Under the pieces are notes generated by a model, which had not been told where the DNA came from, made no database searches, and was given only the letters and a program-made list of their open reading frames with translations. A stretch of 53,032 nucleotides of DNA, from positions 1-53,032 of the IMG/VR virus record IMGVR_UViG_3300027872_000009; one strand, given 5' to 3'. Every line of letters starts with the position of its first letter. Position 1 is the first letter of the stretch. Source of the stretch: a virus. Its lineage: Duplodnaviria; Caudoviricetes. Made by a program: the position numbers and the translations under genes. Of this stretch, positions 16,698 to 46,571 are shown piece after piece.

Positions 16698-16726
16698 AAA
16701 TTAGACGGTAATTGCCAGCGTGGCAA
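16698..16726 (-). promoter_or_regulatory. Sigma70-like promoter overlapping a palindromic operator
   Basis: TTGCCA-17nt-TAATTT on the minus strand; perfect TTGCCA-N3-TGGCAA palindrome at 16712-16726. Confidence 0.6.
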
Positions 16727-22711: not shown

Positions 22712-23314
22712 ATGCCAGCAAAAAAGAAGGCGGCTAAATGGCCCGCCGATGCAGTTGCAAGATGGAACATCGACAAGCTGTTCCCACAGGCGAACAACGC
22801 CCGGATGCACTCCCCTCTGCAAATTGATCAGATCGTCGCGAGCATTCAGGAATGGGGCTGGACCGTACCGGTCCTAGTCGACACCAAGGGCCATATCATT
22901 TCCGGCCACGGGCGCATCCTTGCAGCGAAAAAACTCGGTATCAATGAAGTGCCGGTAATGGTGGCGCGCGGGTGGAGCAACACGAAGAAGCGGGCCTATG
23001 CAATCGCCGACAATAAGCTGTCCGACAACAGCGATTGGGACCGTGGGATGTTGGCGATCGAACTTGGCACCATGGCCGACGAATTTGATCTTTCGCTTAC
23101 CGGGTTTTCTTCCGAGGACCTGAAAAGCCTGTCGCTCGACTTCAAGCCGGAAGAGCAACCGGAAACCGGCGGCGGCGGCCCAGTGACAGGCGACGACATC
23201 ACCAATGCAAAGGGCAAACTGGGCGGCAAGTTTGGAAAGTCGGGCCAAACTATCATCGACGTGATGTGTCCCAACTGCGGGCAGACTTTCGGGGTCAACA
23301 AGAATGACCTCTAA
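22712..23314 (+). CDS. ParB/Srx-like N-terminal domain protein
   Basis: NARMHS..QI..I..SIQEWGWTVPVLVD....ISGHGRILAA...AYAIADNKL; C-terminal CPNCG. Confidence 0.88.
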   Translation: MPAKKKAAKWPADAVARWNIDKLFPQANNARMHSPLQIDQIVASIQEWGWTVPVLVDTKGHIISGHGRILAAKKLGINEVPVMVARGWSNTKKRAYAIADNKLSDNSDWDRGMLAIELGTMADEFDLSLTGFSSEDLKSLSLDFKPEEQPETGGGGPVTGDDITNAKGKLGGKFGKSGQTIIDVMCPNCGQTFGVNKNDL

Positions 23315-25146: not shown

Positions 25147-25558
25147 GGGGAAATACAAGGATCGGCGGCTGTCGATCGAGTACGTTCCGACAGCGTCGCT
25201 CAAGCCGAACGAATATAATCCAAATGTCCATAGCGCCGATTCGTTCGATCTGTTGACCCGGTCCATTGCCTACTTCGGCTTCACACAGCCGATCGTTGTT
25301 GACAGCAGGACGGGCGAGATTGTCGACGGCGAAAACCGCTGGCGCGTCGCGGCCGTGCTTTCCATGCCGGAAGTGCCGGTATGTTTCATCGACCTGTCCG
25401 ACGGTGAGCGGCAGGCGGCATCGATCATGCACAACCGGGCGCGGGGCCGCGAACTGGGAGCGCAGATCGCAAAGATCGAAAAGTCCGTCGACGATCTGGA
25501 CCCGGCGCTTCTGGATGATGTTCTGTTGAAGAGCCGGTTCGATGCGCCTGTATCTTGA
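25133..25558 (+). CDS. ParB-like protein (IbrB-type)
   Basis: PNEYNPN, GFTQPIVV, IVDGENRW and HNRARG. Confidence 0.82.
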   Translation: MKLLEGKYKDRRLSIEYVPTASLKPNEYNPNVHSADSFDLLTRSIAYFGFTQPIVVDSRTGEIVDGENRWRVAAVLSMPEVPVCFIDLSDGERQAASIMHNRARGRELGAQIAKIEKSVDDLDPALLDDVLLKSRFDAPVS

Positions 25559-26681
25559 TCAGGATGTCTTTCAGGCGGCCGAGGCACGGCTCAACTGGAT
25601 TTTCGACGAGTTCGAAAACGTCATGGTTTGCGTGTCCGGTGGCAAGGACAGCACCGTTTGCCTCAATATGGCCCTTCAGATCGCCACAGAGCGCGACAGG
25701 CTACCGTTAACGGTCCAGTTCACCGATCAGGAAGCAGAGTGGCAAACGGTCATTGACCATGTCCGTGAGGTCATGTCCGACGACCGGGTCGATGCACATT
25801 GGCTGCAAGTTCCGATCAAATTATTCAACGCTTCGTCGCAAATGACGCCATGGTTGCAATGTTGGGAGCCGGGCAAGGAATGGATACGGCACAAGGAACT
25901 CGACAGCATCCACGAAAACAAGTTTGGGACCGACAGATTTACCGATCTTTTCCGGGCCTATGCCGAATACGTTTACGGCAAGGACAAGTGCGCGCTGATA
26001 GGCGGGGTCCGTTGCGAGGAAAGCCCGGCCCGGACACGGGGCCTGACCGAATCGGAAGTCTACAAGGGCGAGACGTGGGGCAAGGTCATAAGTCCGAAAT
26101 TGCCGCACCACACTTTTTATCCGATTTACGATTGGTCATATACCGACGTCTGGAAGTCGATCCATGACAACGGCTGGCCGTATTGTCCGATTTACGATTA
26201 TCAGTACCAGTACGGCTTGCCGGTCATGTCCATGCGGGTGTCAAACGTCCACCACGAGGGCGCGATGCCGAACCTTTATTATCTTCAAGAGATCGAGGCC
26301 GACACATGGGATAGGATCACCGCCCGGCTGGACGGCATCAGCACGATCGGCCACATGAAGAAAGACGTGTTCTGCCCCAAGGTGCTGCCGCCCATGTTTC
26401 GCGACTGGTTCGATTACCGCGACCACTTGATCAAGTACCTAGTCGCCGATCCGAAAATCCAGAAATATTACCGGACGACGTTTGCCCGGTACGACGACCG
26501 CTACCCGGTCACGTTGCACGAAAAATTGGTCAAGGTGCAAATCGCCTGCGTCCTGTCCAACGATTACCACGGCCAGCGGCTAGGCTCTTTCCGGGCCTGC
26601 TATTTCGGCCAGAGCAAAAACGTCGGCAAGGTGAATAAGATCCTCGTACCTATGGACGAATACAAGGCAAAACGGGCATGA
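25542..26681 (+). CDS. PAPS-reductase-fold / DUF3440 protein (IbrA-like PP-loop enzyme)
   Basis: SGGKDS PP-loop, GVRCEESPAR, FYPIYDWSYTDVW and MRVS. Confidence 0.88.
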   Translation: MRLYLDQDVFQAAEARLNWIFDEFENVMVCVSGGKDSTVCLNMALQIATERDRLPLTVQFTDQEAEWQTVIDHVREVMSDDRVDAHWLQVPIKLFNASSQMTPWLQCWEPGKEWIRHKELDSIHENKFGTDRFTDLFRAYAEYVYGKDKCALIGGVRCEESPARTRGLTESEVYKGETWGKVISPKLPHHTFYPIYDWSYTDVWKSIHDNGWPYCPIYDYQYQYGLPVMSMRVSNVHHEGAMPNLYYLQEIEADTWDRITARLDGISTIGHMKKDVFCPKVLPPMFRDWFDYRDHLIKYLVADPKIQKYYRTTFARYDDRYPVTLHEKLVKVQIACVLSNDYHGQRLGSFRACYFGQSKNVGKVNKILVPMDEYKAKRA

Positions 26682-27265
26682 AGAAACCGCGAAAGACATC
26701 GTTTCCAGATCAACCGGTAAACACGGTTCGATGGGTGCCACTCGAAAAGGTCAGGCCGAACGACTACAATCCGAACGCCGTCGCCAAAACGGAAATGCGA
26801 TTGCTGTACCAGTCGATCTTGCACGACGGTTTCACACAGCCGATCGTCACGGTTTACGACAAGGCCGCCGACGAGTATGTGATCGTCGACGGTTTCCATC
26901 GGTACTTCGTCGCCAAAAACAACGCGGTCATATCGGAGCGAACCGACGGGATGGTGCCGGTCGTGGTTATCGACAAGGGCGTCAATGACCGGATGGCGTC
27001 GACGATCCGCCACAACCGGGCAAGGGGCAAGCATTCGGTCGCCGGCATGTCGAGCATGGTTTTCAAGATGCTGGACAATGGCTGGAAAGATGAGGCAATT
27101 TGCAACGAACTTGGTATGGAGGCCGAGGAACTTCTACGGCTCAAGCACATTACCGGGTTTTCCCGGCTGTTTGAAAACATGGAATACAAACGGGCCTGGA
27201 AGCGGCGCAGCCAAGTGCGGATCAAGAACGAGTACCGGGAGAAGGCAGATGAGCAAGGCAGTTGA
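26678..27265 (+). CDS. IbrB-like ParB-domain protein
   Basis: PNDYNPNAVA..EM.LL..SI..DGFTQPIV, VDGFHR, RMASTIRHNRARGKH and LGM..EELLRLK. Confidence 0.88.
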   Translation: MKKPRKTSFPDQPVNTVRWVPLEKVRPNDYNPNAVAKTEMRLLYQSILHDGFTQPIVTVYDKAADEYVIVDGFHRYFVAKNNAVISERTDGMVPVVVIDKGVNDRMASTIRHNRARGKHSVAGMSSMVFKMLDNGWKDEAICNELGMEAEELLRLKHITGFSRLFENMEYKRAWKRRSQVRIKNEYREKADEQGS

Positions 27266-32218: not shown

Positions 32219-34738
32219 ATGGCCGCAATAGCTGATGCCGATATCTCCATTGACAACAGTGGCGCTATCAGATGGACCGGGGCCGCGACGACGCCACGGC
32301 ATTCCGTGCTGGAATTTATCCAGTTAATGCAGGACAAGCAGGACGATGAGCAGGCGGCCGGCGACATCCTTTTGGATATCACCGTCGATACACCGTTTGA
32401 TCGGTCGACCGATCAGATTGTGGCGCTCAACTCGCCGTTCAATATCGACGCCACGTTCGCATCGCATTTGTATGACGGGTCGGTTTCGCAGACCAACCCG
32501 ACGTTCGGCGGCGAGGACCTGTTTTCGGGGCTGGAACTTATTGGTCCTGTCGTGGCCGGCACCGAATATATGGTCCTGCAAAACGGCAAGGTGATTGCGG
32601 CGTTTTGGGGAACCGGCATCAACGCGCCGCCTGCCCCGACGCTGGTGTTCTCCCGGCATCTGGTACAGTCGAAGCTTGCCGGGGCGCAGATTGACGGACG
32701 GCGGATCACCGTTCTGGCTCGCGAACTTGGCGATCAGTTCCGGCGCTTCCCGGTCACACTTGGCACGGGTAACAGCGTGGCGGCTATCGGTAACGGCGCG
32801 GACATTTTCAACACGACGCCCGACGCGACCATCGCCGGCTGGACTACCATTACCAATGTCGAGGGTTTTCAGGAACTCGATATCGACAAGACCGGCGCTG
32901 CCGGACAGGAATACTATTCCCAGTGGGCCAAGGCCGCGCAGTCCATCAATGACACCTATGAGCGTACCAAGTGGATTTCGCAGCGGTCGCATATCGCTGA
33001 TTCAAATGCCGAGGGCGCTGAAGATTTCATCATCGACGATAACAACACAACGAGCGTTGGCGTTGGTTCGGAGTGGTCCGCAACGGCTGCGGGAGAAGTC
33101 CTGACCGAACTGGTCGCCAGCATCAAGATTGGCGCTGGCACGGCTCACACAGGGACGCTTTACGCCTTGCTCTACGATTCCGACGATGTCGCCACGGCAG
33201 CACCGACGGGGGCCATTCTGGCGCGTTCGGAACCGATCTTGGCCAGCGCCATTACATCGTCTTATGAGGACATTATTTTCCGCTTCAACCTGAAAGACCC
33301 AAGCGACGGGTCGGATCAGGCCGCCGGGCTGGTATTGGTTGCAGATCAGGAATATTTCTTTGTCCTGAAACACGACGAAGGAAGCGCCACCGATTATTTC
33401 CATGCCGAGGGCGATACGACGACAGCCGACGACGGCAACTTCGCTCGCGAGACGCCGCCAGCGACGTTTACTGGTGTTGGAACGAGTGCTTTGCAATTCA
33501 CCGTCAAGACGTCGCCGGCGATCCATGGCGTACCGGGCGAACTTATGCAGGGCATCAGCGTCGAGGTAGGTTACGACGGCGAAATAGGCACGGGTGTCGC
33601 CGAAGACAACATCGTCATGTGGGGAACCAAGGTTAATTATGACGGGCTTACGGGCGGGCCGTTCTTTGCCGGTGAGCCGGTGACGTTCCGGGCCGAGGGC
33701 GACAGTTCGCTCAAGACTGGCGGCATCGTGCTTTATGATGATTTGACTGATGAACTCATTGTCGCGCTGGACACGCCGGGCGCGGCCGTGATCGACGATA
33801 ACGACCTGATCGAAGGACTGGTGTCCGCTGCCACGGCGGCGATCAATGTTGCCGGTGGTGCCATTCTGGATGAGGACAAGGGCGGCGGTACGGGCATTTT
33901 GCTGGCAAAGGACGATAACGGCGCGGCTGGCGAATTGTATTTGCAAGTCTTGACCGGCATCGACCCGGTCGACGACAACACGATCAGGCGCGACGATGCG
34001 AGCGGCGATCCGTTGCTTGATTTGTGCCTTGCAACGGCTGTCATCAACCCCAAAACGATCAACCCCGAATTTCTTGGGACGTCGACGGGGTCCAATATTA
34101 TTGGCGCTTACGGGATCGGCTTCGACCCGGACGACGTCGGGGCGTCCGATCGTTTCATATCCTTGGATGACGCCCCGCGTACTCCGCCGAACAATGTCGC
34201 GTTCACCATTTCGGCTCTGGTATCCGGCGAGGACCGGGTATTGGTCGCGCCGCGTTCGGGATCTGTCATCGACGAGGGTCAATGGTTGCTGGCGACGGCG
34301 CTTACGACTGGCACGGAAGTCGCCGTTGTGGTGAAAACCGGGACGGAAACGGTCCCATTCGTCACGGCCGATATCAATTGGCCAACAACCGGGAAGGTGG
34401 CCGAACCGGCGAAGCTGCGTATCCAACTGGACAGTAATATCCGCCGCCATATCGATTATGAATCGCACGACGCCGTTGATACGTTCACTATCCTTTCCAC
34501 CAGCTTTACCGGAGCAAATTCGGCGGCGGTCAACCGGCAAGTCTATCTCGCCTTCATTGACGTACTGGCGGACGCCACCACGGAAAGTTTCACGGGAGTC
34601 CATGACGCCCAAGACCGCGACCTGTTTGTCCGGGTGCGCGATGGAGGCGGAACGCCGATCAAGACATTTGAGTCAGTGACGGCGCAATTTCTTGCCACGC
34701 CTGTAACGGTCGCGGCGGTCAGAACAAGCGACGCCTAG
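32219..34738 (+). CDS. Large acidic beta-rich virion protein (839 aa)
   Basis: Long ORF with genome-typical codon usage, D/T/G/A-rich; C-terminal LFVRVRDGG..PIKTFE..RTSDA. Confidence 0.7.
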   Translation: MAAIADADISIDNSGAIRWTGAATTPRHSVLEFIQLMQDKQDDEQAAGDILLDITVDTPFDRSTDQIVALNSPFNIDATFASHLYDGSVSQTNPTFGGEDLFSGLELIGPVVAGTEYMVLQNGKVIAAFWGTGINAPPAPTLVFSRHLVQSKLAGAQIDGRRITVLARELGDQFRRFPVTLGTGNSVAAIGNGADIFNTTPDATIAGWTTITNVEGFQELDIDKTGAAGQEYYSQWAKAAQSINDTYERTKWISQRSHIADSNAEGAEDFIIDDNNTTSVGVGSEWSATAAGEVLTELVASIKIGAGTAHTGTLYALLYDSDDVATAAPTGAILARSEPILASAITSSYEDIIFRFNLKDPSDGSDQAAGLVLVADQEYFFVLKHDEGSATDYFHAEGDTTTADDGNFARETPPATFTGVGTSALQFTVKTSPAIHGVPGELMQGISVEVGYDGEIGTGVAEDNIVMWGTKVNYDGLTGGPFFAGEPVTFRAEGDSSLKTGGIVLYDDLTDELIVALDTPGAAVIDDNDLIEGLVSAATAAINVAGGAILDEDKGGGTGILLAKDDNGAAGELYLQVLTGIDPVDDNTIRRDDASGDPLLDLCLATAVINPKTINPEFLGTSTGSNIIGAYGIGFDPDDVGASDRFISLDDAPRTPPNNVAFTISALVSGEDRVLVAPRSGSVIDEGQWLLATALTTGTEVAVVVKTGTETVPFVTADINWPTTGKVAEPAKLRIQLDSNIRRHIDYESHDAVDTFTILSTSFTGANSAAVNRQVYLAFIDVLADATTESFTGVHDAQDRDLFVRVRDGGGTPIKTFESVTAQFLATPVTVAAVRTSDA

Positions 34739-34758
34739 ATGCGCCATGAGGTCATGTC

Positions 34759-37356
34759 GTGACAATTCTGGATCAACGCGATCTGATCGGAGACGCTTCC
34801 TCTGACTCTGCCGCATGGGTGGACGAAGGCGGCGGCACCGCGCCGACGACCTACACCCTGTCGGCCCCGCCCGGCGTGACAACCGTCATATCGGACAAGG
34901 TTTCGAACCAGCTTGACGGGATGCTCTACAATGACGCCACGCCAGCCGGCGGGGCCTATGCTGATGGCGACACCATCTTTATCTGGTGGAATGCCATTTT
35001 TGGTTCGTTCAACACGGTAGCAAACGGCGGCGTCAGGATGAAGTTTGCCGGGGCAACCCGGACGGACTTTTTCGCGGTCACTATCGGCGGGTCGGACAGC
35101 GGCAAATCCGGCTGGCAATTAACCGCGGTGAATATCGGCAAGGCGCGGGCCAACCCCGATTTTGTTGGTGGCACGCCACCGGCCGCCGCCAGTATCGAAC
35201 ACGTCGGCATCCTGTGGGATGTCACGGCGAACGTCGGCGGCAACAATGACAATTGCGCCATCGGCAATATCTACAGGCAGACCGCCGATCAGCGCACCTA
35301 TCGTATCGATGCCGGCACGGATGGAACGCCGATCACATGGCAAGACGTTGCCGATCAAGTTTTGACCGACGGAACCGGTATCGTACAGGTGGACAGTAAC
35401 GGCGTGTTCCGGCTTGCCGGGTCGTTCGCGTGGGGAACGTCGACACCTTCCAGTGCGGTCGACATGACATTTGTCGATGCTGGCGTTGTTCTGGCTTTCG
35501 AGGATTTCCCGTTCATCGAAGACAGTTTCTACCAGTTCGAAATGGACCTCGCCGCATCCTATACCGGCGATGCCCGGATCACGGCAGGAGCCAAGAGCGG
35601 GGCCGGTGCGGCGGCCGTCGGCGTCAACGGCTGGACGATCCTTACCGGCGGGCCGAAATGGCGATGGATCATGGAGGATGCCGACCAAACCGACGTGCAA
35701 CTCTATGGTTGTGCGTTCTCCGGTGCGGGCGATTGTCTCCTTGACGACCCGGCCGTCGAGTGTGTCTCAAATACGTGGATCGGCTGCGGCACTGTCGAAG
35801 TGACAGGCAACAGCGTCGCCGCGTCGATGCCGCGATGGGTGAGGAATTTCTTTTCCGCCTGTCCGGGTCCAAGGGCGCAGATCGTATGGACAAACGCCGT
35901 TTCGCCAAATGCCGACGGCTTCCAGTTCAACACGTTCGCGAACATGCTCTGGTTCGGCATGGAAATCGGTTCGGCGATGACCGGGTCGCTGACGTTCGAA
36001 CTTCGAGACAATGCCTTCACGAACAACGGCACAAACAGGGACATACTCGCGAGTAATGACGTTGGCGACCTGACCATAAATTCCGACGCATCGCCGACGC
36101 CACAGGGAACAAACGGAACGACGATCAACATCGCCATGGTCGGAACGGTCGACCGGTTCATCTACACGGTCGTTACCTATGAGGACGTGAGCAACACAGA
36201 CGGGGCCGACCAGAGCGCGTTCGGCAATCCGCTTGTGACGCAGTTAACGGCAAGCCTGTCGGCCGATGACGATACCTTTGCGGTCGCTGCGGCCGTACCC
36301 TTCGGGGCGTTGACCTATACCGGCGCAAGCGACCAATACACGGACGACCTTTTGTTCGAAAATATCGTCGGCGGGCTGGTGGCAAGGCTTGGCCTTGACG
36401 AAGTGACGCCCGGCGCGGCGACCCGTACCGGCTTCCCGGTCCACGATGGAACGGAAACCGAAGGCGTACAGGCGATTGTCAACGTCAACGAGTTCGCTAC
36501 CAGTACGCCGGTCGGCAAGATCGACCCGGCGTTCCGTCCATGGGCCGAGGTCGTGGCCGGGATTTCCGCCACCTTCGGTTATGGCGCGGCACTGGCCGCC
36601 GTTCACGCGAATACCAAATGTTTTGTCATCGTGATTGCCCTCGACGCGGCGACGGCGGCCGATACGGCTATCAGCGCGATCGACATCGACACGGGCGCGA
36701 GCGTGCAAGCGCTCACTTCGCGGATCGTTGAGCAAGACGACAACATCGGCGGGGCGGGGAACAGTCTTGAACTGTCGATCTTCGATCTGCACGAAGCGGT
36801 CGACACGACCGAACAGGGTGGGACGCTGTTGATCCAAGCCGGCAGCGTTGCAACGCTAATCCATGTTGCCGACGATCTTGGGGTCGATCTGGAAAATGCG
36901 ATTGTTTTGCTTGAAGCCGCCGACGCTGCCGGCGATCTGCCATTCGACGATACCGTGACCATCACGCACGTAACGACGCTGGCGACCGTCGCACATACCG
37001 GACACGACATGATTGCCGGCGACAAGGTGGTGATCCGAAAGGCGGATCAAAATCCTTACAATGGCACGTTCGCGATTTCCAACATTTCGGCAAACGCTTA
37101 CGACTACACCATGAACAGCGACCCCGGTGAAAATGCTACCGGTACGATCAAGGCGACCGGGGCAGTCTTGCAAGGCCTCACGGACGCGAACGGGGATATC
37201 ACCACGTCGCGTTCTTGGGGCAGCAATCAGAACGTGCGAGGATATGTCCGCAAGTCGACCACGTCGCCGCGCTTCAAGACCTTTGATCTGTCGGGCAACA
37301 CAATTTCATCGGCCGACGGGTTGCCAATTAATGTGAGGATGCAATTGAATGAATAA
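34759..37356 (+). CDS. Large fibre-like virion protein (865 aa)
   Basis: Beta-helix-like middle; HTGH...GDKVVI...YNGTF.I module common in tail fibres; C-terminal GLTDANG. Confidence 0.65.
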   Translation: MTILDQRDLIGDASSDSAAWVDEGGGTAPTTYTLSAPPGVTTVISDKVSNQLDGMLYNDATPAGGAYADGDTIFIWWNAIFGSFNTVANGGVRMKFAGATRTDFFAVTIGGSDSGKSGWQLTAVNIGKARANPDFVGGTPPAAASIEHVGILWDVTANVGGNNDNCAIGNIYRQTADQRTYRIDAGTDGTPITWQDVADQVLTDGTGIVQVDSNGVFRLAGSFAWGTSTPSSAVDMTFVDAGVVLAFEDFPFIEDSFYQFEMDLAASYTGDARITAGAKSGAGAAAVGVNGWTILTGGPKWRWIMEDADQTDVQLYGCAFSGAGDCLLDDPAVECVSNTWIGCGTVEVTGNSVAASMPRWVRNFFSACPGPRAQIVWTNAVSPNADGFQFNTFANMLWFGMEIGSAMTGSLTFELRDNAFTNNGTNRDILASNDVGDLTINSDASPTPQGTNGTTINIAMVGTVDRFIYTVVTYEDVSNTDGADQSAFGNPLVTQLTASLSADDDTFAVAAAVPFGALTYTGASDQYTDDLLFENIVGGLVARLGLDEVTPGAATRTGFPVHDGTETEGVQAIVNVNEFATSTPVGKIDPAFRPWAEVVAGISATFGYGAALAAVHANTKCFVIVIALDAATAADTAISAIDIDTGASVQALTSRIVEQDDNIGGAGNSLELSIFDLHEAVDTTEQGGTLLIQAGSVATLIHVADDLGVDLENAIVLLEAADAAGDLPFDDTVTITHVTTLATVAHTGHDMIAGDKVVIRKADQNPYNGTFAISNISANAYDYTMNSDPGENATGTIKATGAVLQGLTDANGDITTSRSWGSNQNVRGYVRKSTTSPRFKTFDLSGNTISSADGLPINVRMQLNE

Positions 37357-38285: not shown

Positions 38286-38746
38286 TCAATCCGCTCACCG
38301 TTGCATCGGACGGATATCTGTCGCCGAACGGTCTGGTTTCATTGACCATCGCGAGTCGCGGCTACCTGTCGGCCGTCGCCGCCCCGATACCTCCGGGCCC
38401 CTCCGGCGGCGGTGGTGCTGGTGGCGTTACTCGCCGGCGCAAAGGACAGGCCCCGGTCACGGTTGCCAAGCGGATCACGCGCGAGGAACTTCAGGCCAAG
38501 GCAATCGAACTTGCGGACCTTGAAAAACAGATCAGCGCGAAAACCATCAAAACCGTGATTCGCAAGGTGGAACTGGGCAGACTGGACCTTTTAGCGCTGA
38601 AACAGGCAATTGCGAGGGCCAGAGACATAGCACCAGCGACCGTTCGCAAACTCCCGCTTGTCATTGTGCCGGCAGATATTACGTTGCCCCTCGCGGCTCC
38701 TGTGAGCGACCTGAATTTGCGTTTGCTCTTGCTGGCGGGATACTGA
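38282..38746 (+). CDS. Hypothetical protein with Pro/Gly linker
   Basis: ASDGYL/ASRGYL repeat and PPGPSGGGGAGG; coupled. Confidence 0.55.
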   Translation: MINPLTVASDGYLSPNGLVSLTIASRGYLSAVAAPIPPGPSGGGGAGGVTRRRKGQAPVTVAKRITREELQAKAIELADLEKQISAKTIKTVIRKVELGRLDLLALKQAIARARDIAPATVRKLPLVIVPADITLPLAAPVSDLNLRLLLLAGY

Positions 38747-40479
38747 TGGCGCTCAACGACGATATTCTTGAACGGGCGATCGGCCATGAAATCGGCTTGC
38801 GCCGGCATTCGAGCAAGCTGCTAAACAACTACACGAAGATCCTCCAACAATCCGAAACGCGGCTCATAAACGAGATAGCGCGGCGCGGCATAGGCGATGT
38901 CAGTTTCACAAGCCGCCGTCTGGACCTTATGTTGAAGTCCGTACAGACCCTGATGCACGACACCTATCTGGCGGCGAACGGCCAACTAAATTCCAGCCTG
39001 CGGGATATGGCCGGCAACGAGGTCAATTTCCAAACTGAAATGCTCAAGCGGTTCCCGCCGGTGAGTCTGGATATCGTGTCACCTACCAGCCAGCAAGTTC
39101 ATGCGGCGGCTCGAGGCCGGCCGTTTTCAGGCCGCGTCCTCAAGGACTGGTACAAGGATATCGACACCAGCGCCTTCAAGCGCGTCAAGGAAGAACTGAA
39201 ACAGAGCTTCGTGGAAGGGCGAACCACGGATCAAATCGTCCGGTCGATCCGGGGAACGGCGGCGCAGAATTTCAAGAACGGCATCCTTGAAATCAACCGG
39301 CGCGGCGCGCGGACGATGGTCAGGACGGTGACAAATTTCTACGCCACCGTAGCAAGGGAAGAGACGTTTCGCGCTAACAGGAAGGTCCTCAAGGGCGTCC
39401 AGTGGCACGCTACCTTGGACAACCGGACATCGGCGATCTGCCGGGGCCGTGACGGCATCATGTACCCGGTCGACAGCGGCCCTCGCCCGCCGGCGCATCC
39501 CAATTGCCGATCGACCATGATACCGATCACAAAATCGTGGAAAGAACTAGGTATCAATCTCAAGGAAGCGCCGCGCGGTACGCGGTCGTCGATGAATGGC
39601 GCTGTACCGGGCAAGCTGAATTACAACGATTGGCTCAAGCAACAGTCGGTCGCATTTCAGGACGACGTACTCGGCAAAACCAAGGCACAGCTATGGCGCA
39701 AGGGCGGCGTGCCGTTGAAGCGGTTTGTCGATCTGAAAACCGGGCGGGAATATTCGCTGTCGGAACTGCGGGCCAACGATGCGGCGTCATGGCAAAAAGC
39801 GTTCGGCGGCGGTACGGCCACACCGGGTCCGAAACCCAAGCCGAAGCCCAAGCCCAAGCCGGTCGAATATGAGCGTCTGGACGTCGATCCGAAGGGCGAC
39901 CTTCCGACACCCTTGGAGGGGCACGAAGTCGTAAAGAAAATGGAAACGCTTATGAAGGAGTCGATCGTTGACCGGGGCGAACTTGCCCGGCGTTTGACCT
40001 TCGAGGAAGCACAGGCATTAAGTCGCTATACGGGGTCAGGTTACAGGGAAATAAATGGATATCTTAGAAAGGCAACGAAGCGTACCGGGGCCGAAATCAC
40101 GGAAATTCAACCCGTTGTTGATCTGCTCGACGACATTTTTGAAGCAACGTCGCTTTCGAAAAATGTTAAAGCGTTTCGAGGCATTTCTACAAACGGCTGG
40201 AAAAGGTTTAACGATGGGTATAAGGTGGGGGATACTTGGATCGACAAAGGATTTACAAGTGCATCCGTGCGAGAACAAGTTGGCAAGAACTTTGGACAAG
40301 GCCCCATGCTCGAATTTCTTGTCCCAAAGGGGGCAAAAGCATTTCCGACCAACGGCCTGTCCAGCCATGTTAGTGAAACGGAGTTACTTTTTCACCGGGG
40401 CCTCGAATGGGTTGTCAAGAGCATTGACCCGACCGGAGTCGGCGGGTTGTATCCCCGCGTGGTTTTGGAGTTGAGATAA
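38746..40479 (+). CDS. MuF (SPP1 gp7-like) minor head protein fused to a C-terminal ADP-ribosyltransferase domain
   Basis: MuF: WHATLDNRTSAICRGRDG and PPAHPNCRS. (PK)n linker. ART: YT..GYREINGYLR, FRG, GFTSAS and ETELL (R-S-E triad). Confidence 0.88.
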   Translation: MALNDDILERAIGHEIGLRRHSSKLLNNYTKILQQSETRLINEIARRGIGDVSFTSRRLDLMLKSVQTLMHDTYLAANGQLNSSLRDMAGNEVNFQTEMLKRFPPVSLDIVSPTSQQVHAAARGRPFSGRVLKDWYKDIDTSAFKRVKEELKQSFVEGRTTDQIVRSIRGTAAQNFKNGILEINRRGARTMVRTVTNFYATVAREETFRANRKVLKGVQWHATLDNRTSAICRGRDGIMYPVDSGPRPPAHPNCRSTMIPITKSWKELGINLKEAPRGTRSSMNGAVPGKLNYNDWLKQQSVAFQDDVLGKTKAQLWRKGGVPLKRFVDLKTGREYSLSELRANDAASWQKAFGGGTATPGPKPKPKPKPKPVEYERLDVDPKGDLPTPLEGHEVVKKMETLMKESIVDRGELARRLTFEEAQALSRYTGSGYREINGYLRKATKRTGAEITEIQPVVDLLDDIFEATSLSKNVKAFRGISTNGWKRFNDGYKVGDTWIDKGFTSASVREQVGKNFGQGPMLEFLVPKGAKAFPTNGLSSHVSETELLFHRGLEWVVKSIDPTGVGGLYPRVVLELR

Positions 40480-40610
40480 TGGCCAAGAAACCCAAATTCG
40501 ACCGAAGCGACAAGTTCGTTTACAGCGAAGCGGATATCGATGCGTTGATCAAAAACCCGACCGACGCCGAACGGAAGGCCGCACAGCCGGTTCCCAAGAA
40601 ACCCGCCTGA
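40479..40610 (+). CDS. 43-aa candidate immunity protein, not in the ORF track
   Basis: MAKKPKFDRSDKFVYSEADIDALIKNPTDAERKAAQPVPKKPA; TAATG-coupled to the toxin; GGAG SD. Confidence 0.55.
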   Translation: MAKKPKFDRSDKFVYSEADIDALIKNPTDAERKAAQPVPKKPA

Positions 40611-40611
40611 C

Positions 40612-40640
40612 TTGCCAAGCCGGCCAGTTTTCCTATATAA
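40612..40640 (+). promoter_or_regulatory. Rightward promoter with operator
   Basis: TTGCCA-16nt-TATATA; TTGCCA-N3-CGGCCA at 40612-40626. Confidence 0.6.
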
Positions 40641-40649
40641 CGCCCATTA

Positions 40650-40814
40650 GACGGTAAGAGAAACTCGCCCCGTCCGGTAGTACGGAATTTAGGCTTGGTG
40701 TTTTTCTTGGCAACTTCGACCGGGGAGCCGTTTGACGGTAAGAGGGTGGGGCCGCGCCGGTCTAGCGGCTTGGCTGCGGTCTGCCTTCTTGGTAATTCCG
40801 ACCGGGGAGCCGTC
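40650..40814 (+). ncRNA. Tandem pair of structured RNA-like units (family not recognised)
   Basis: Units 40650-40732 and 40734-40814 share GACGGTAAGAG ... TTCTTGGYAAYTYCGACCGGGGAGCCGTY around different sequences that both fold as hairpins; G-U pairs favour the + strand. Confidence 0.6.
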
Positions 40815-40835
40815 CTGTCATAAGGAGTAAACGGC

Positions 40836-40973
40836 ATGGACATCTTGATCCAAGCCTTTGTCTTTTTCACGGTACTTGCCCTTGCCAACGGCGCTTTCGA
40901 ATATGGCTTCCAGAGTTGGTTGATCCGGCGCGAGATTGCCGAGCGGCTGGAGGCTATGCCATGCACCCGCTAG
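40836..40973 (+). CDS. Small membrane protein (45 aa), not in the ORF track
   Basis: TAAGGAG SD; MDILIQAFVFFTVLALANGAFEYGF. Confidence 0.55.
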   Translation: MDILIQAFVFFTVLALANGAFEYGFQSWLIRREIAERLEAMPCTR

Positions 40974-41173
40974 AGCAAAAGGCCCTTGATGCCCTTTGTC
41001 CGCGAGACAGGCGCATTCGCGATGCAATTGTTACAGAACTTGATCGCCAATATCAGGAAGTGAAAATGGGGGCTTGGGTTGGTGACGACCTTGGGACGGC
41101 CATAAGCGTTGACGGTGAAATTGATTTGATGGAATTAGTCGCTGCGATTGTTAAAGGCATTAACGCAGCATGA
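40961..41173 (+). CDS. Hypothetical protein
   Basis: GGAGG SD; coupled to the methyltransferase. Confidence 0.55.
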   Translation: MHPLEQKALDALCPRDRRIRDAIVTELDRQYQEVKMGAWVGDDLGTAISVDGEIDLMELVAAIVKGINAA

Positions 41174-41733
41174 AACCCTTTGAACAACGCGCCGAGGCCA
41201 TCCTCCGGCGGGTCAGGCCGAAAATGATCGTTGCCGAAGTCGGCGTTTTCCATGGCCAGCTATCGCGAATATTGCTCAACGGCGGCCTCTATGTTTTTAT
41301 GATCGACAATTGGCTTTCCGGTGAAGCACAAAGCGACCGCTACAGGGCGACGGGTGACTTCCATGGAACGCTGTCAGTCGAGGCCGTCGAGGCTGCCGAA
41401 AAGTCTGCCAAGGCGGTTGCGAGGCCATACGGTTCTTTTGCACAAATTTACAAGGGAAATTCCAATACGATTGCTCGCAGTTTCCCCGATAAAATGTTCG
41501 ACATGGTATTTCTCGATGCCGACCACAGCTACGATGGCGTCAAGGAGGATATCCACGAATGGATGCCCAAGGTGAAGCCGGGCGGGTGGCTCGGCGGACA
41601 CGATTATGGCGAGCCGCCGCCGGGCTTTAACGTCGGCATGAACTTCGGCGTCACGGCGGCGGTCGAAGAAATGATTGCGTCTTGGTACGTGATCGAAACT
41701 GATCTGAATATGACATGGTTCGCGCGGCTCTAA
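41170..41733 (+). CDS. Class I SAM methyltransferase (Methyltransf_24-like)
   Basis: AEVGVFHG and FDMVFLDADHSYDGVKEDI..W.PKVKPGGWLGGHDY. Confidence 0.9.
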   Translation: MKPFEQRAEAILRRVRPKMIVAEVGVFHGQLSRILLNGGLYVFMIDNWLSGEAQSDRYRATGDFHGTLSVEAVEAAEKSAKAVARPYGSFAQIYKGNSNTIARSFPDKMFDMVFLDADHSYDGVKEDIHEWMPKVKPGGWLGGHDYGEPPPGFNVGMNFGVTAAVEEMIASWYVIETDLNMTWFARL

Positions 41734-41865
41734 AATTACCGACCTACAAGCAGATCACGCTTGAACAGCAGCACGGATTTCTGTTGCGAGAAATCGCGAT
41801 TATGTGGGGTATCGACTTCAACACCATCTGCTACATTGTCCTGAAAGCGATAAGGAAAAAGCCCG

Positions 41866-42387
41866 ATGAGACACCCGACGGCATACATACACCCGATGGC
41901 CTGCGTCGATGATTCCATAAAGGACATCGGACCCGGTACGAAGATATGGCAATTTGCCTCGGTAATCCGAGGTTCGATAATTGGCGAACGTAGCGTCATT
42001 GGAAATTGCGCTATCGTGGACGCTTCCAGAATTGCCGATAACGTCCGTATCCAGCCGGGGGCGGTTATCTTTCCCGGCGCGATGATATGGCAGGACGTGT
42101 TTGTCGGGCCGAACGTGGTCCTCTGCAATGACTTCTGGCCAAGCGTCGACAAGGATGGCTGGAACTACGAAGCATTGCTCAACGGCGACCTGACATCGAT
42201 CCGGATTTATCCGGGTGCCAGCATCTTTGCCGGTGCAAAAATAATGCCGGGGATCACGATCGGCGAGGGGGCGCGCGTAGCGGCCAATGCGATTGTCAAG
42301 CAGGACGTACCGGACAATTGCCTCTATGGCCGTGACGGGTCCATTGAGGCCATCAGAGGCCAGCCCCGACGGCAGCGGACGTGCTGA
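41866..42387 (+). CDS. Hexapeptide-repeat acetyltransferase (sugar N/O-acetyltransferase-like)
   Basis: IGPGTKIWQF, VFVGPNVVLCND and GASIFAGAKIMPGITIGEGARVAANAIVKQDVP. Confidence 0.9.
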   Translation: MRHPTAYIHPMACVDDSIKDIGPGTKIWQFASVIRGSIIGERSVIGNCAIVDASRIADNVRIQPGAVIFPGAMIWQDVFVGPNVVLCNDFWPSVDKDGWNYEALLNGDLTSIRIYPGASIFAGAKIMPGITIGEGARVAANAIVKQDVPDNCLYGRDGSIEAIRGQPRRQRTC

Positions 42388-42388
42388 C

Positions 42389-42559
42389 ATGACCGACACC
42401 GCCCGTTGCACCAGTATAGGCCGCTGCCAAAACGAAATCGTCCGGCTGCGATGGTTCCTGAATCGGATAGCAAAGCTGCCGCCCGGCTCGCGTGGTAACA
42501 AATCGAGGAAGTTGGCAAACGCGGCCCTGTCTGGAAAATCAACCGACTTCAAGCCGTGA
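42389..42559 (+). CDS. Hypothetical protein
   Basis: Fills the gap; GTGA-coupled to the glycosyltransferase. Confidence 0.4.
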   Translation: MTDTARCTSIGRCQNEIVRLRWFLNRIAKLPPGSRGNKSRKLANAALSGKSTDFKP

Positions 42560-43206
42560 CCGGCTTCCGTGGCATGTTGACCGTAGCGTGCTGCCTGTGG
42601 ACCGCTAACAGGCACTCACGGCCGTTCTCGCAAATGTATAACGAGTCATGGGTCGAGAAGCTTTATCGCGGCTACGCGCGCAACCTGACGCTCCCGTTCA
42701 AGTTCATCTGTTTTACCGATCACGTCCGGCAATTCAACGAACCGATCGAACAGGTCGGTTTCAAGAGGCTGGATGGCGAGCCGCCGGATTACGGGCAGTT
42801 GATTGAGCCGTTCCGGCTGAATGAGCCGATGATCCTTACCGGGTTGGACACGATCATTACCGGCAACATCGACCACCTGATGTCCTATTGCTTCCTGTCT
42901 GAAAAACTCGCCCTGCCGCGTGACCCAAATCACCTTGAAACGATCTGCAACGGCGTCGCTCTGGTGCCGCGAGGCCACAGCCATATTTATCATAAATGGG
43001 ATGGCAACAACCAATACCTGTCCGACATGGATTGGCTTCGCCGGCAGGACTATGCCGTGCTGGATGATCTGTTCCCCGGCCATGTCGTAAGCTACAAAAG
43101 CCACGTCAAAAAACAGGGTCTTGGCGATGCCCGGATCGTCTACTTCCACGGCAAGGAAAAGGCGCACGAGATTGACGAGCCGTGGATCAAGGACCATTGG
43201 AATTGA
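42556..43206 (+). CDS. GT-A-fold glycosyltransferase
   Basis: VACCLW..Y..WVEKL...RNL..PF.FICFTD, LDTIITGNID and IVYFHGKEK.HE. Confidence 0.8.
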   Translation: MTGFRGMLTVACCLWTANRHSRPFSQMYNESWVEKLYRGYARNLTLPFKFICFTDHVRQFNEPIEQVGFKRLDGEPPDYGQLIEPFRLNEPMILTGLDTIITGNIDHLMSYCFLSEKLALPRDPNHLETICNGVALVPRGHSHIYHKWDGNNQYLSDMDWLRRQDYAVLDDLFPGHVVSYKSHVKKQGLGDARIVYFHGKEKAHEIDEPWIKDHWN

Positions 43207-43218
43207 GAGGATCAGATT

Positions 43219-43383
43219 ATGATGGACAAGATTTGCATGTGGATCGCATGGCGGCTTCCAAAGAAGCTGGTTTATTGGGCGCAAATCCGAGTCACCTGTT
43301 ATGCCACGCAAGGGAAATACTCGTCGCAGGTGGTTCCTGATTTGACGGTGGTCGATGCATTGGAGCGTTGGGAAGGCCGATGA
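43219..43383 (+). CDS. Small hypothetical protein (54 aa), not in the ORF track
   Basis: GAGG SD; MWIAWRLPKKLVYWAQIRV..ATQGKYS. Confidence 0.55.
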   Translation: MMDKICMWIAWRLPKKLVYWAQIRVTCYATQGKYSSQVVPDLTVVDALERWEGR

Positions 43384-43551
43384 ATTATCGCGGATTAATT
43401 ATCGCTGCCGGCTGGCTCTGCATGATGTATCTAATCATCCTGTGGGCAGGCGCATAGGAAAGCCGTCCGAGATTGACGGGCTGTGGACTAACGAGTATTG
43501 GATTTGATACCGGTCCTGCATGGGCCGGGTTTTGTCATCTTGCATTGACGG

Positions 43552-43590
43552 AAAGCCGCCTCGGCCTTGAAAACCGGGGCGGCTTTTTTT
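43552..43590 (+). terminator. Rho-independent terminator (possibly bidirectional)
   Basis: AAAGCCGCCTCGG/CCGGGGCGGCTTT stem plus T7, between convergent genes. Confidence 0.8.
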
Positions 43591-43608
43591 GAGCGGTGCT
43601 GGAAATGA

Positions 43609-43905
43609 TCAGGCGGGCGTCTTGCCAACGGTCGGATCGGACAGGTCGATTTCCTCTTCGCGAGGTTTAGGCGGATCGACAAACATTGAAGCGCCATGTC
43701 CTATGACCTTCCGGCTTAAAACATCGTTGACGTGCCACTCCGGTTCGGCTTGGGCAAAGGCAAAAGAAACTTGCGACAGGGCGGCGCTTTCATCGCGGCC
43801 GGTATGCTCTTGCCGGGCCTGTTCGTCCAGAGTATCTGCGATGCCCTTGAAAATGTCCTTCAGGATTTCGCTGAGTTCGGTCTTGGTGATCAGTTCGGTT
43901 TTCAT
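43609..43905 (-). CDS. Hypothetical protein (inverted island)
   Basis: GGAG SD. Confidence 0.55.
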   Translation of the reverse strand: MKTELITKTELSEILKDIFKGIADTLDEQARQEHTGRDESAALSQVSFAFAQAEPEWHVNDVLSRKVIGHGASMFVDPPKPREEEIDLSDPTVGKTPA

Positions 43906-43944
43906 CTGCTTTCTCCGGTCGGGTTGGAGTTCATCGGGGTATTG

Positions 43945-44226
43945 CTAGATTTTACGTCCGTGTTCGTCTCTGAAATAAAGTCCGGGGCGAAGGCCTAGTG
44001 CGCGCAAGAGCGCGCGAGCGCCGATATGCGTTGTGTCGCCGTCCATGTTGCGAATGACATGGATGTTATCGTAAAATTCGGCATCGCTAATTAACTCGGC
44101 ACAATCTGGATGGTCGCGGTCGATCCAATAATGGCGACTATTTTCTTTTAGAATCGTCGGAGCGGGTAAATCACGGCAACCAACGTGGTCGTCATAAAAT
44201 GCTTTGGGGATTCTGGTCAGGGCCAT
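43945..44226 (-). CDS. Hypothetical protein (inverted island)
   Basis: AAGGAGG SD; RIPKAFYDDH..RDLPAP...ELISDAEFY. Confidence 0.65.
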   Translation of the reverse strand: MALTRIPKAFYDDHVGCRDLPAPTILKENSRHYWIDRDHPDCAELISDAEFYDNIHVIRNMDGDTTHIGARALLRALGLRPGLYFRDEHGRKI

Positions 44227-44238
44227 TGGCTTTCCTCC

Positions 44239-44637
44239 TTACAGGCTGCGGTTGATAACGGAATAGGGGTGGCCGTCCTCGAAAGCCTCGAGGGCAAGGT
44301 CGGCGCTCGCGTAGCCCTCCGGCTCGGCGGACGGCTTTGCGAAATAGGCGCTTGTGGGACCCTCCGCGCCCTCGTAGGCGCGTTCGATCATTTGCCATGC
44401 GGCAACCACCGTCGGAGTCGGAACGTGGCTCACGGTGCGGCTCTTGAAACAGTCGCAATCCATGCTCTCATGGACAAATGCGATCCGGCCGGCTTCACCG
44501 GCCTTGGCCAGCAAGGGAACGTACCGGGCGCGGCCGTTGATGGTGGAATGGATCGGCGCGGCGTTGCGGCTGGCCATATTGCGGAACACCCGCCGCACCT
44601 TGCGCTTCCATTGCTTGGTGACTTTGAAAGTGGTCAT
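44239..44637 (-). CDS. Hypothetical protein (inverted island)
   Basis: AAGGAGG SD; DCDC, AEGP and DLALEAFEDGHPY. Confidence 0.65.
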   Translation of the reverse strand: MTTFKVTKQWKRKVRRVFRNMASRNAAPIHSTINGRARYVPLLAKAGEAGRIAFVHESMDCDCFKSRTVSHVPTPTVVAAWQMIERAYEGAEGPTSAYFAKPSAEPEGYASADLALEAFEDGHPYSVINRSL

Positions 44638-45023
44638 TGGCTTTCCTCCTTGATGCGCTGCTCTGCGGCTTCGCGCGGGTTGATCTGCCCGGACCACTCC
44701 GCGAAAGTCGGAAAGTCCAGATTGCCGCAAGCCCGTGCCTCGGCTTTTTCCTCCTGATAATTGTCGTATTGAACATTGAGGACCGCCTTGCTTTTTTCCA
44801 TTGCGCGAGCATTGCGGCACCGTCTTTTCACGTCATTGACCGCTTCGCCGATGGTCCAGAAATTTTCGCGGTCCCTATGGCCCGGAAACTGTGCGCCGAC
44901 GGTGACGACGGCGAACTTGAAATTCCAGTCGGGCGAAAAGAGAATGTGAAAACTTCGCTTGCCAATGATCCGGCCTTCGCTATTGGTCGGCGACGTTTGT
45001 TCCAGCGTGTAGATTTTGGACAT
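44634..45023 (-). CDS. Hypothetical protein (inverted island)
   Basis: AGGG SD; ATGA-coupled to the next gene. Confidence 0.55.
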   Translation of the reverse strand: MSKIYTLEQTSPTNSEGRIIGKRSFHILFSPDWNFKFAVVTVGAQFPGHRDRENFWTIGEAVNDVKRRCRNARAMEKSKAVLNVQYDNYQEEKAEARACGNLDFPTFAEWSGQINPREAAEQRIKEESQ

Positions 45024-45048
45024 TGGTCGTTTCCCTGTTTGGTTGAGG

Positions 45049-45429
45049 TTAAATGTGCAGGCGGTAAACGATACCGTCGGCATGGCAGACGGCGATATGT
45101 TTGCGGACCCGGTAATTGCTGATGCGGCAAATGATCGTGTATTGCTGACCCCGGATCGTCGAAACTTTCGCGGCCGGCAATGGAACGGCAAAGCGTTCGC
45201 ACATTTCGGCGACCTTGCGATCGACGGCAAGCGCAATGGAGTCGTCCATGGTCGGAAATTTGCCGACGCCGTTCGGGTATGACTCCTTGAATTTCCGGGC
45301 GAGCAACTTGTCGTTAAGGCCGTAGTCGTCGGCAATCTCGACAACGTCGGCGTGATCGATATCGTTCTTTTTCAGGTACAGCGCCTTGAGTTCCGCGAGC
45401 GCGTCTTTTAAGTCGGCCATATTGACCAT
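45049..45429 (-). CDS. Hypothetical protein (first gene of the inverted island)
   Basis: GGGAG SD directly after the promoter. Confidence 0.6.
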   Translation of the reverse strand: MVNMADLKDALAELKALYLKKNDIDHADVVEIADDYGLNDKLLARKFKESYPNGVGKFPTMDDSIALAVDRKVAEMCERFAVPLPAAKVSTIRGQQYTIICRISNYRVRKHIAVCHADGIVYRLHI

Positions 45430-45457
45430 TGAGTTTCTCCCGTTTGTTCCTGTCCCC

Positions 45458-45485
45458 AATATAGCCGTTCCGGCAAGTTTTACAA
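45458..45485 (-). promoter_or_regulatory. Leftward early promoter with operator
   Basis: TTGTAA-16nt-TATATT; TAGCCG-N3-CGGCAA at 45462-45476. Confidence 0.7.
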
Positions 45486-45498
45486 GGGAATATCGGAC

Positions 45499-45999
45499 AT
45501 GCTAATCAACCGGCTTCTCGCCATTGCCCCGCCCGGCCCAAGGATCGAAATGGGTGTTTTCAGGGGTGCTACCTTGGAGGTCATCGCGCGGCATCCGGGC
45601 GAGACGATCGGCGTGGATAGTTTCGCCGGCATGGCGGAGCCTACCGCCCGCGATAAGCCGGGCGGCGAAAATCCATACCCGAAGGGCCGGTTGGCTTACG
45701 CGATGGCCGACGTGAGGCGGGTCGTTCCGGGCGCTCGGCTCATTTGTGGATACGTGCCGGCGGTACTGGCCGACGTGCCGGACCAACTCTACGCCTTCGC
45801 CCGGCTCGACATGGACCATTACGAGCCGACGGCGGCGGCCTTGGATTGGCTGTGGCCCCGGATGATGGCCGGCGGCGTTCTGTCCTGCGATGATTATTTT
45901 CCAGACAATCATTTTCTCGCGTCCGGTGCTATCAACGAGTTTAGTGGCAACCACCCGATAGTCGGGCATGAAGGACGCGAGGCTTGGTTCATCAAATGA
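45499..45999 (+). CDS. TylF/MycF-like sugar O-methyltransferase
   Basis: EMGVFRG, DSFAGM and AFARLDMDHYEPT..ALDWLWPRM..GGVLSCDDY. Confidence 0.85.
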   Translation: MLINRLLAIAPPGPRIEMGVFRGATLEVIARHPGETIGVDSFAGMAEPTARDKPGGENPYPKGRLAYAMADVRRVVPGARLICGYVPAVLADVPDQLYAFARLDMDHYEPTAAALDWLWPRMMAGGVLSCDDYFPDNHFLASGAINEFSGNHPIVGHEGREAWFIK

Positions 46000-46571
46000 A
46001 AACGGCAATTATTCTCGGCGGTGCGGCCTGCGTATGGGAGGACATGGAGGCGGCACTTGCGCTCGGCACTTATGATGCGACCATCGCCACGAACGACACT
46101 CTCGCCTATCATTCCGGGGAGGTTGACTATGCCGTTTCCTTGCACCCGCAAAAGTATGCCGGGTGGCTTGACGAGCGCCAAAGGAAGGATTTTCCCCGGC
46201 CGAAATGTGTCGTCACCTTTCCTGAATACAGCAAGGGCGGCTGTGTCAAGATTGACCTGTTTGTCAATTACAAATGGCCGGGAATGGCCAAGAGCGGATC
46301 AAGCGGTTTGTTCGCGGTCAAGGTTGCACTCGATCAGGGCTTCAAAAAAATAGTGCTATGTGGTATCCCGATGACCTTGCAACCGCACTTCTTTGGTGCG
46401 AAGGACTGGAAAGATTCGGATAAGTTTTGGCCGGCATGGGAAACGATGCAGGACAAGTTCAAAACTGAAACCCGCTCGATGAGCGGTCGGACCATGGAAC
46501 TGCTTGGTTGTCCGACCAAGGAATGGCTCGCTGAAACACAGGCCGGCGAGGCCGGCAAAGGAAAAGCCTGA
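45996..46571 (+). CDS. Sialyltransferase/Maf-like (DUF115-type) Rossmann-fold transferase, tentative
   Basis: AIILGGA, IATND and SGSSGLFAV.VA...GF.KIVLCG.PM...HF. Confidence 0.55.
   Translation: MKTAIILGGAACVWEDMEAALALGTYDATIATNDTLAYHSGEVDYAVSLHPQKYAGWLDERQRKDFPRPKCVVTFPEYSKGGCVKIDLFVNYKWPGMAKSGSSGLFAVKVALDQGFKKIVLCGIPMTLQPHFFGAKDWKDSDKFWPAWETMQDKFKTETRSMSGRTMELLGCPTKEWLAETQAGEAGKGKA

Follow-up and report, generated by a model that had tools for sequence, protein, structure and literature searches.

A conserved three-way-junction RNA motif of uncultured marine phages that is absent from Rfam

To our knowledge, few structured regulatory RNAs of phages have been described and almost none of them come from uncultured marine siphoviruses. 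In the tandem glycine riboswitch, two adjacent three-way-junction units of approximately 80-100 nucleotides (nt), each closed by a P1 stem, occupy the 5' leader ahead of the Shine-Dalgarno (SD) sequence and the AUG start codon, while in the purine-riboswitch type of fold a P1 stem closes two hairpins with complementary loops. Antisense RNAs of the phage c4 and P4 CI type are small; a stem closes them, and the loops of their two hairpins base-pair with targets. The marine phage and cyanophage motifs manA, wcaG and glutamine riboswitch are structured leaders that have been described mostly from marine metagenomes and from phages, some of them arranged in tandem and some preceding sugar or glycan genes. 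The put RNAs of HK022, which follow an early promoter directly and act in cis on RNA polymerase, are composed of two stem-loops and not of a three-way junction. Here we report two RNA units on the + strand of the virus record IMGVR_UViG_3300027872_000009 (Duplodnaviria; Caudoviricetes), of which the whole analysed stretch of 53,032 nt is termed the window. Both unit 1 (40650..40732) and unit 2 (40734..40814) represent an RNA motif with a three-way junction that is conserved among uncultured marine phages and had not been catalogued; among the structured phage leader RNAs, a kind already known, this motif constitutes a new family. A first-pass annotation of the window, made from its letters alone, had proposed two 81-83-nt units with a shared architecture at this place; both are present, have the same fold and are backed by homologues and covariation.

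The window units share with the tandem glycine riboswitch the adjacency of two P1-closed three-way junctions in a 5' leader, but no Rfam glycine match was obtained at E<=10, the conserved nucleotides differ, the motif is single in three of its four loci and its gene context is incoherent. P1 of the motif closes two hairpins with invariant complementary loops (CCGGU and ACCGG) in the manner of the purine-riboswitch type. Unlike that fold, however, its P2 (50-65 nt) and P3 (14 nt) are very unequal, a single 4-nt joiner is present, the loop-loop contact is without covariation and Rfam gives no match. The likeness to the c4 and P4 CI-type RNAs is that of a phage-borne element of approximately 80 nt with a closing stem and two hairpins with conserved loops; against it, there is no Rfam c4 match and no complementary target boxes were identified for the motif. 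The manA, wcaG and glutamine riboswitch families likewise have no Rfam match in the window or in the three other loci. As with HK022 put and the eps-associated EAR, a structured RNA directly follows a promoter-like site and heads a long operon (the glycan operon in the window), but the architectures differ and no Rfam EAR match was found.

Membership of a known family was judged against the 4227 covariance models of Rfam 15 by a score at or above the family gathering threshold. The whole window gave no match at the gathering thresholds, positions 40400-41000 gave none at E<=10 and the three other loci gave none at E<=1. Within the latter two scopes, no match was made by the models of self-cleaving ribozymes (hammerhead, twister, twister-sister, pistol, hatchet and HDV-like). 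The units are therefore a structured RNA class that Rfam 15 does not hold, and the earlier description of an RNA of unrecognised class stands even at the permissive E<=10 setting. As judged by titles and the beginnings of abstracts, the listed literature on the conserved decamer, on phage three-stem-junction RNAs and on structured phage RNAs offered nothing on this motif. A CRISPR-like mini-array or solitary repeat was considered and set aside (no dedicated CRISPR tool was run): the P2 interior, which would be the spacer, pairs with itself, extends the helix with compensatory changes and is 91-94% conserved between phages.

Architecture, covariation and strand of the units

When folded alone, each unit adopts a common shape consisting of a 5-bp P1 (GACGG/CCGUY), a long P2, a joiner G-Y-A-A and a 4-bp P3. 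P2 begins directly after P1 and stacks on it (UAAGAG... / ...CUUCUUG), while P3 (YUYC/GGAG, with the loop GACCGG) joins the 3' strand of P1 without a linker. In unit 1, which is 83 nt long and carries an interior of subtype A, P1 is formed by 40650-40654 and 40728-40732, P2 spans 40655-40709 (basal helix 40655-40664 / 40700-40709; apical loop with CCGGU at 40673-40682), the joiner GCAA lies at 40710-40713 and P3 pairs 40714-40717 with 40724-40727 around the loop GACCGG (40718-40723). In unit 2, which is 81 nt long and carries an interior of subtype B, the corresponding elements are P1 at 40734-40738 / 40810-40814, P2 at 40739-40791 (apical loop with CCGGU at 40756-40764), the joiner GUAA at 40792-40795 and P3 at 40796-40799 / 40806-40809 with the loop GACCGG at 40800-40805. 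The two units are evident as direct repeats spaced by 82-84 nt, one of 28 nt and 89% identity that covers the 3' block (40704-40731 / 40786-40813) and one of 17 nt and 88% identity that covers the 5' block (40644-40660 / 40728-40744). Their interiors are only 33% identical.

Two details of the first-pass drawing required correction. The proposed U bulge pairs with G in all five known units (alignment columns 12-79) and is thus a U-G pair, and the proposed cap NCCG-GUNNNN-CGGN' cannot form in one of the homologues (L088); the comparison favours a GC-rich stem that closes a 9-10-nt loop in which CCGGU is always present. In both subtypes CCGGU can be placed in this apical P2 loop, and it is exactly complementary to the ACCGG of the P3 loop. 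A 5-bp tertiary contact between the P2 and P3 loops is accordingly possible from the letters of the two loops.

To evaluate the fold, the two window units and the single units of three uncultured phage contigs (L082, L084 and L088) were aligned with MAFFT, without fitting to structure (alignment A2), and the structure tested comprised P1, the P2 base and P3 plus the putative loop-loop helix. Standard pairs filled 97.5% of the 120 pair cells, compared with 89.1 +/- 1.8% in shuffles, and seven pairs (two in P1 and five in the P2 base) change on both sides, compared with 2.8 +/- 1.1 in shuffles; the observed value was reached by none of 500 shuffles in either case, with the structure having been derived from the same five sequences that were tested. 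When the 3' partner columns were slid by 1-3 positions, pairing fell to 41-56% with 0-3 both-side pairs. P1, the basal P2 and P3 were independently recovered by RNAalifold. P3 varies on its pyrimidine strand only (CUUC, UUCC or CUCU against a constant GGAG), by way of G-U or G-C pairs.

Approximately 35 positions are invariant and these are concentrated in the junction and the loops. The blocks that are identical in all five units are GG-UAAG at the end of P1 and start of P2, GCC-S-CG and CCGGU in the distal P2, and CUUGG-N-AA followed by four pyrimidines and then GACCGGGGAGCC. Subtype A comprises unit 1, L082 and L084. The phages concerned have no other DNA and almost no proteins in common, yet their distal P2 interiors show 91-94% identity; the basal P2 strands that flank this interior are 29-57% identical, with 29-50% for unit 1 against L082 and L084, and are still paired. 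Subtype B comprises unit 2 and L088, in which a 5-bp GC stem closes the 9-10-nt loop, and the L088 unit has an extra small hairpin on the 3' side of its distal P2. A fold kept by compensatory change, together with an interior of approximately 30 nt that is almost letter-perfect in otherwise unlike phages, points to a specific conserved partner, the identity of which could reveal how such phages time or condition their gene expression. At approximately 80 nt the motif is small enough for direct biochemistry, and if it were a true riboswitch or ribozyme a new class would be added.

The RNA belongs to the + strand. Counted from the per-pair table, 18 of the 120 pair cells are G-U and would read A-C on the opposite strand; with R1, the covariance model built from the five units, the score of unit 2 falls from 72 bits on the + strand to 1.6 bits on the - strand; and the + strand folds (-24.3 kcal/mol for unit 1 and -40.0 kcal/mol for unit 2) are stronger than those of the - strand (-17.7 and -23.3 kcal/mol). 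The strand assignment made earlier from G-U pairs is borne out by these results. R1 scores the five units at 72-102 bits (101.5 bits for unit 1), values that hold by construction because the model was built from them. The spacing of the conserved blocks (65, 63, 65, 66 and 76 nt) covers all three residue classes modulo 3 and stops are present in most frames; the units are not protein-coding, since the block spacing keeps no reading frame. A duplex-DNA site is an unlikely description of the units.

Occurrence among uncultured phages

Five units in four loci were found by pattern scans. The window carries two, one of each subtype, and L082, L084 and L088 carry one each, so that the window is the only one of the four with a tandem pair; a single unit is present in the entire 20.5-kb record behind L082, and the L088 contig is only 1.1 kb long. 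The lead to these homologues came from the comparison of the region with contigs of three seawater DNA runs. In one of the runs (X1), 40666-40733 is matched, with 7 differences, by a second, 15-kb contig whose flanks on either side do not resemble the window. At least two other contigs (15 kb and 5.6 kb) of that run, which probably represents the source sample, share the 30-mer 40666-40695, at which the assembly graph branches, and further subtype A units therefore exist in the community of this run.

L082 was located among viral contigs with a pattern of the interior sequence, while L084 and L088 were located among metagenome contigs with a degenerate pattern from three copies. The metagenome scan returned six stretches, of which L084, L088 and L087 are true, L087 being the same contig as L082. 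The remaining three were read as chance pattern matches (L083, 16.4 bits and E 0.77; L085 and L086, no R1 match).

Other searches indicate how sparsely the motif is distributed. Among viral contigs, a whole-unit pattern gave no match, and a 3' block pattern with C before GACC gave three matches with no unit in context, for which R1 returned 15.5 bits (E 1.2) in L003 only and nothing in L004 and L005. Four further viral-contig patterns retrieved only L082 and L093, the latter without a unit. No unit was detected by regular expression or R1 in 76 viral-contig loci around related major capsid protein genes. In species-representative bacterial genomes, a pattern satisfied by all five units gave four stretches, one of which (L091) had a partial R1 match of 6.9 bits over its last 18 nt only; since R1 scores none of the four as a unit at the pattern site, this pattern revealed no copy in a prophage or host among the species representatives. 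A blastn comparison with GenBank phages gave no relevant match even at E<=10, and R1 found nothing in Microcystis phage Me-ZS1.

The carriers of the motif are unlike each other. A six-frame comparison of open reading frames (ORFs) demonstrated that the window, L082 and L084 phages share almost no proteins. The sole shared protein, between the window and L082 only, is a ParB-like 'DGQHR' protein (phrog_5931) with 27% identity over 88 amino acids (aa), a similarity that we judged uninformative. This protein adjoins a unit only in L082, where the phrog_5931 homologue is the gene directly upstream. GC content is 41% for the L082 locus, 57% for the L082 unit and 56% for the window.

A second conserved element was observed directly upstream of the unit in L084 (605-790, - strand) and L088 (803-1000, - strand), and is absent from the window and L082. 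It has a 9-10-bp closing stem (…GCGCGG / CCGCGC…), an exact common 18-mer and a 5-bp hairpin that abuts the closing stem and whose pairing is kept through a C-to-U change, and both copies end an open frame with an identical four residues. It may represent either an additional domain of the leader or a larger element distantly related to the unit.

Leader position and possible functions

The last unit is followed, after 21-45 nt, by the start codon of a co-oriented gene in all four loci. In the window, both units occupy the 225-nt spacer between a 43-aa ORF (40479-40610), the start of which overlaps the stop codon of a gene for a fusion of MuF with an ADP-ribosyltransferase (MuF-ART; 38746-40479), and an ORF with its AUG at 40836. 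The latter ORF (40836..40973, + strand) encodes 45 aa with a hydrophobic N-terminal half, has the SD AAGGAG 8 nt upstream and matched no family. It heads a cassette with genes for a methyltransferase (Methyltransf_24; 41170-41733), a hexapeptide transferase (41866-42387) and a glycosyltransferase or glycosyltransferase-like protein (42556-43206). The L082 unit precedes a ParB-like protein of 361 aa and the L084 unit an ORF of 73 aa. The L088 unit precedes a 101-aa ORF without Pfam or PHROG match and then, by frame reading, a terminase-large-like sequence; from its position and N-terminus the 101-aa ORF may be read as small-terminase-like.

A promoter-like TTGCCA - 16 nt - TATATA (40612..40639, + strand) ends 10 nt before unit 1. 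The promoter placed there by the first-pass annotation is thus present as a sequence, but it is not among the calls of a sigma-70 scan, since position 6 of its second hexamer is not T. L084 has a promoter-like TTGCAT-17-TATACC whose last base is approximately 140 nt upstream of the unit and which is likewise uncalled, while the L082 unit starts 6 nt after the upstream stop codon and has no promoter-like site on its strand. No recurring promoter motif was found elsewhere in the window. A possible expression platform was recognized in the window only, at 40810..40835 (+ strand), where the 3' strand of unit 2 P1 (GCCGU, plus CCU) can pair with AGG within the SD AAGGAG (40822-40827) and with ACGGC (40831-40835), which abuts the AUG.

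The reading that we favour, with a confidence that falls slightly short of even, is that the motif is a new leader aptamer which acts in cis and has a ligand or a protein as its partner. Transcription of the + strand, perhaps from the promoter-like site, would place the motif within the 5' leader of the following gene, where it could act in cis as an aptamer-like domain whose P1, P2 and P3 are stabilised by a factor, either a small molecule or a protein of the host or the phage. In the window, binding of the factor may free the 3' strand of unit 2 P1 from the SD/AUG region of the 45-aa ORF, and this release would switch the glycan-modification cassette on. The tandem order of an A and then a B unit might provide two inputs or a sharper response. 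A bolder form of this proposal, which we regard as rather doubtful, would make the motif a new phage sensor (a riboswitch that responds to a signal of host state or of defence, for example a nucleotide second messenger) or a self-cleaving ribozyme, with A and B as interchangeable 'cartridges' whose tandem gates a lysogenic-conversion-type glycan cassette.

Several results weigh against these proposals. The folding energy is ordinary for unit 1 and for the whole region, with z-scores against shuffles of -0.08 for unit 1, -2.33 for unit 2 and 0.03 for the whole 211 nt; folding energy alone would not have revealed the feature as real, and the evidence for more than chance is the homologues and the covariation. 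The covariation statistics in turn rest on few independent events, since only five units are available and three of them have the same interior. All ten positions of the CCGGU/ACCGG contact are invariant and hence provide no covariation for it, and a P2 of 15-25 bp must bend sharply to reach a 4-bp P3. The anti-SD switch of the first-pass annotation holds in so far as the pairing of GCCGUCCU with AGG..ACGGC before the AUG is present in the minimum-free-energy fold of the window; the SD/AUG pairing is, however, not conserved in L082, L084 and L088, and forcing or blocking P1 shifts the modelled SD/AUG accessibility in no consistent direction across the four loci. No intrinsic terminator follows any unit. 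The motif is also unlike a metabolite riboswitch because the downstream genes of the four loci have nothing in common, and no coherent association with a pathway or transport gene was found across them. Of the dual-aptamer leader switch envisaged earlier, the structured RNA in the 5' leader of a gene is retained while the tandem layout is confined to the window, and a ligand tied to glycan (nucleotide-sugar), S-adenosylmethionine or nicotinamide adenine dinucleotide metabolism is disfavoured by the unrelated genes downstream at the other loci.

This lack of common gene association would also fit a processing element or a new self-cleaving ribozyme. Each unit would then be cut, either by itself or by an RNase of the host, so that a unit-length RNA would be set free from the tandem pair and the messages on its two sides would become separate. 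A scattered, context-free and sometimes tandem distribution is typical of small self-cleaving phage ribozymes. The motif is distributed in this way, with unrelated phages as carriers and a tandem pair in one genome, and it has a compact three-way junction with approximately 35 invariant positions in the junction and loops. The fit of its scattered, context-free distribution to small ribozymes gives this explanation substantial weight, but it remains unlikely overall: no Rfam 15 ribozyme family matches even at E<=10, and the junction, which offers G-N-A-A alone, is not known to correspond to any described catalytic core.

The conservation of the subtype A interior (91-94% across unrelated phages) would also fit a conserved host partner. 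A trans-acting small RNA or decoy could bind host RNA or protein through its invariant loops (CCGGU, GACCGG and the subtype A interior) in host takeover or counter-defence, and the two interior subtypes could address two partners. We consider this decidedly unlikely, however, since no terminator follows any unit and every unit abuts a co-oriented gene. In addition, no target or partner was identified, the only protein common to the window and L082 phages being phrog_5931, which is adjacent in L082 only.

The promoter-like sequences upstream of the units in the window and L084 bring to mind a processive antitermination RNA of the HK022 put or EAR kind, in which the nascent leader would bind RNA polymerase and take it past terminators. 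Terminator-like hairpins were located by a window scan within the downstream cassette (43252, 43510 and 43564), and the L088 unit, which precedes the 101-aa ORF and terminase-large-like sequence, may stand at the start of a late operon. The chance of this reading is slight, given that the promoter-like sites are uncalled by the sigma-70 scan, that the L082 unit stands 6 nt past a stop codon with no promoter-like site on its strand and that no Rfam EAR match was obtained.

Comparison with the closest cultured capsid relative of the window phage, Me-ZS1 (62%; L095), raises a DNA-level explanation. Me-ZS1 has its MuF-like gene, a small ORF and the scaffold and coat genes in one uninterrupted run, while window positions 40612-46570 form a cassette of approximately 6 kb between the MuF and scaffold genes that is absent there. 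The units consequently mark the 5' edge of an inserted cassette, which looks like an insertion of the lysogenic-conversion type. A single-stranded DNA hairpin or recombination site at the cassette borders, or an embedded antisense promoter, could account for such a position and for the presence of a GC-rich unit inside an AT-rich phage. The antisense strand of subtype A units reads TTGCCA-16-TAAATT (window 40686-40713, - strand; L084 544-571, + strand), which the sigma-70 scan calls in both. Subtype B units are without the antisense -10, however, and compensatory changes are not expected of a promoter, while the 18 G-U cells would read as A-C mismatches from the other strand and would form weak G-T pairs in DNA. 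The odds on a DNA-level element are accordingly just as slender. The first-pass annotation had cautioned that part of the element might be a DNA site, as a stretch of its sequence recurs near 16700. An exact 12-mer of the bases that span the unit 1 start does recur there (16700-16711), but R1 detects no unit, and the recurrence is at chance level, as 97.7% of 300 random 227-nt regions of the window hold a recurring 12-mer.

An RNA antitoxin or decoy repeat array in the style of type III toxin-antitoxin systems, suggested earlier by the tandem repeats directly after the MuF-ART gene, can be all but dismissed, as the unit is single and lacks a MuF-ART neighbour at each of the three other loci. 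In addition, the units are 81-83 nt long with interiors 33% identical and not near-identical short repeats, and no endoribonuclease-type toxin is found among the downstream ORFs.

Further features of the window

The window record contains a tailed-phage gene set with a P22-type coat protein. The small terminase gene is at 27460, the large terminase at 27893, the portal at 29209, the scaffold protein at 46571 and the major head protein at 47459. No tRNA or tmRNA was found in the window by ARAGORN. Two very large ORFs (839 and 865 aa) occupy 32219-37356, in the interval from the portal region to MuF; Pfam gave no match for either of them, and PHROG gave a weak match for a single one.

In the region 38746-40610, the MuF-ART gene joins a MuF head-morphogenesis domain to an ADP-ribosyltransferase toxin domain at the C-terminus (Pfam ADPrib_exo_Tox, 1.9e-19). 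MuF polymorphic toxins are encoded by a toxin gene followed by a small immunity gene, as in the layout of MuF-ART and the 43-aa ORF. A MuF-ART protein search of viral contigs returned no relatives. The end of the 43-aa ORF (40590-40601, …CCCAAGAAA…) is complementary to the conserved P2 3' strand UUUCUUGG of both units (40703-40714 and 40786-40795), and because of this complementarity a MuF read-through transcript could compete with P2 formation.

The window also contains three ParB/Srx-like genes and a PAPS-reductase-like gene (18572-19471, 22712-23314, 26678-27265 and 25542-26681), and one of the ParB/Srx-like genes is the phrog_5931 member with the DGQHR motif.

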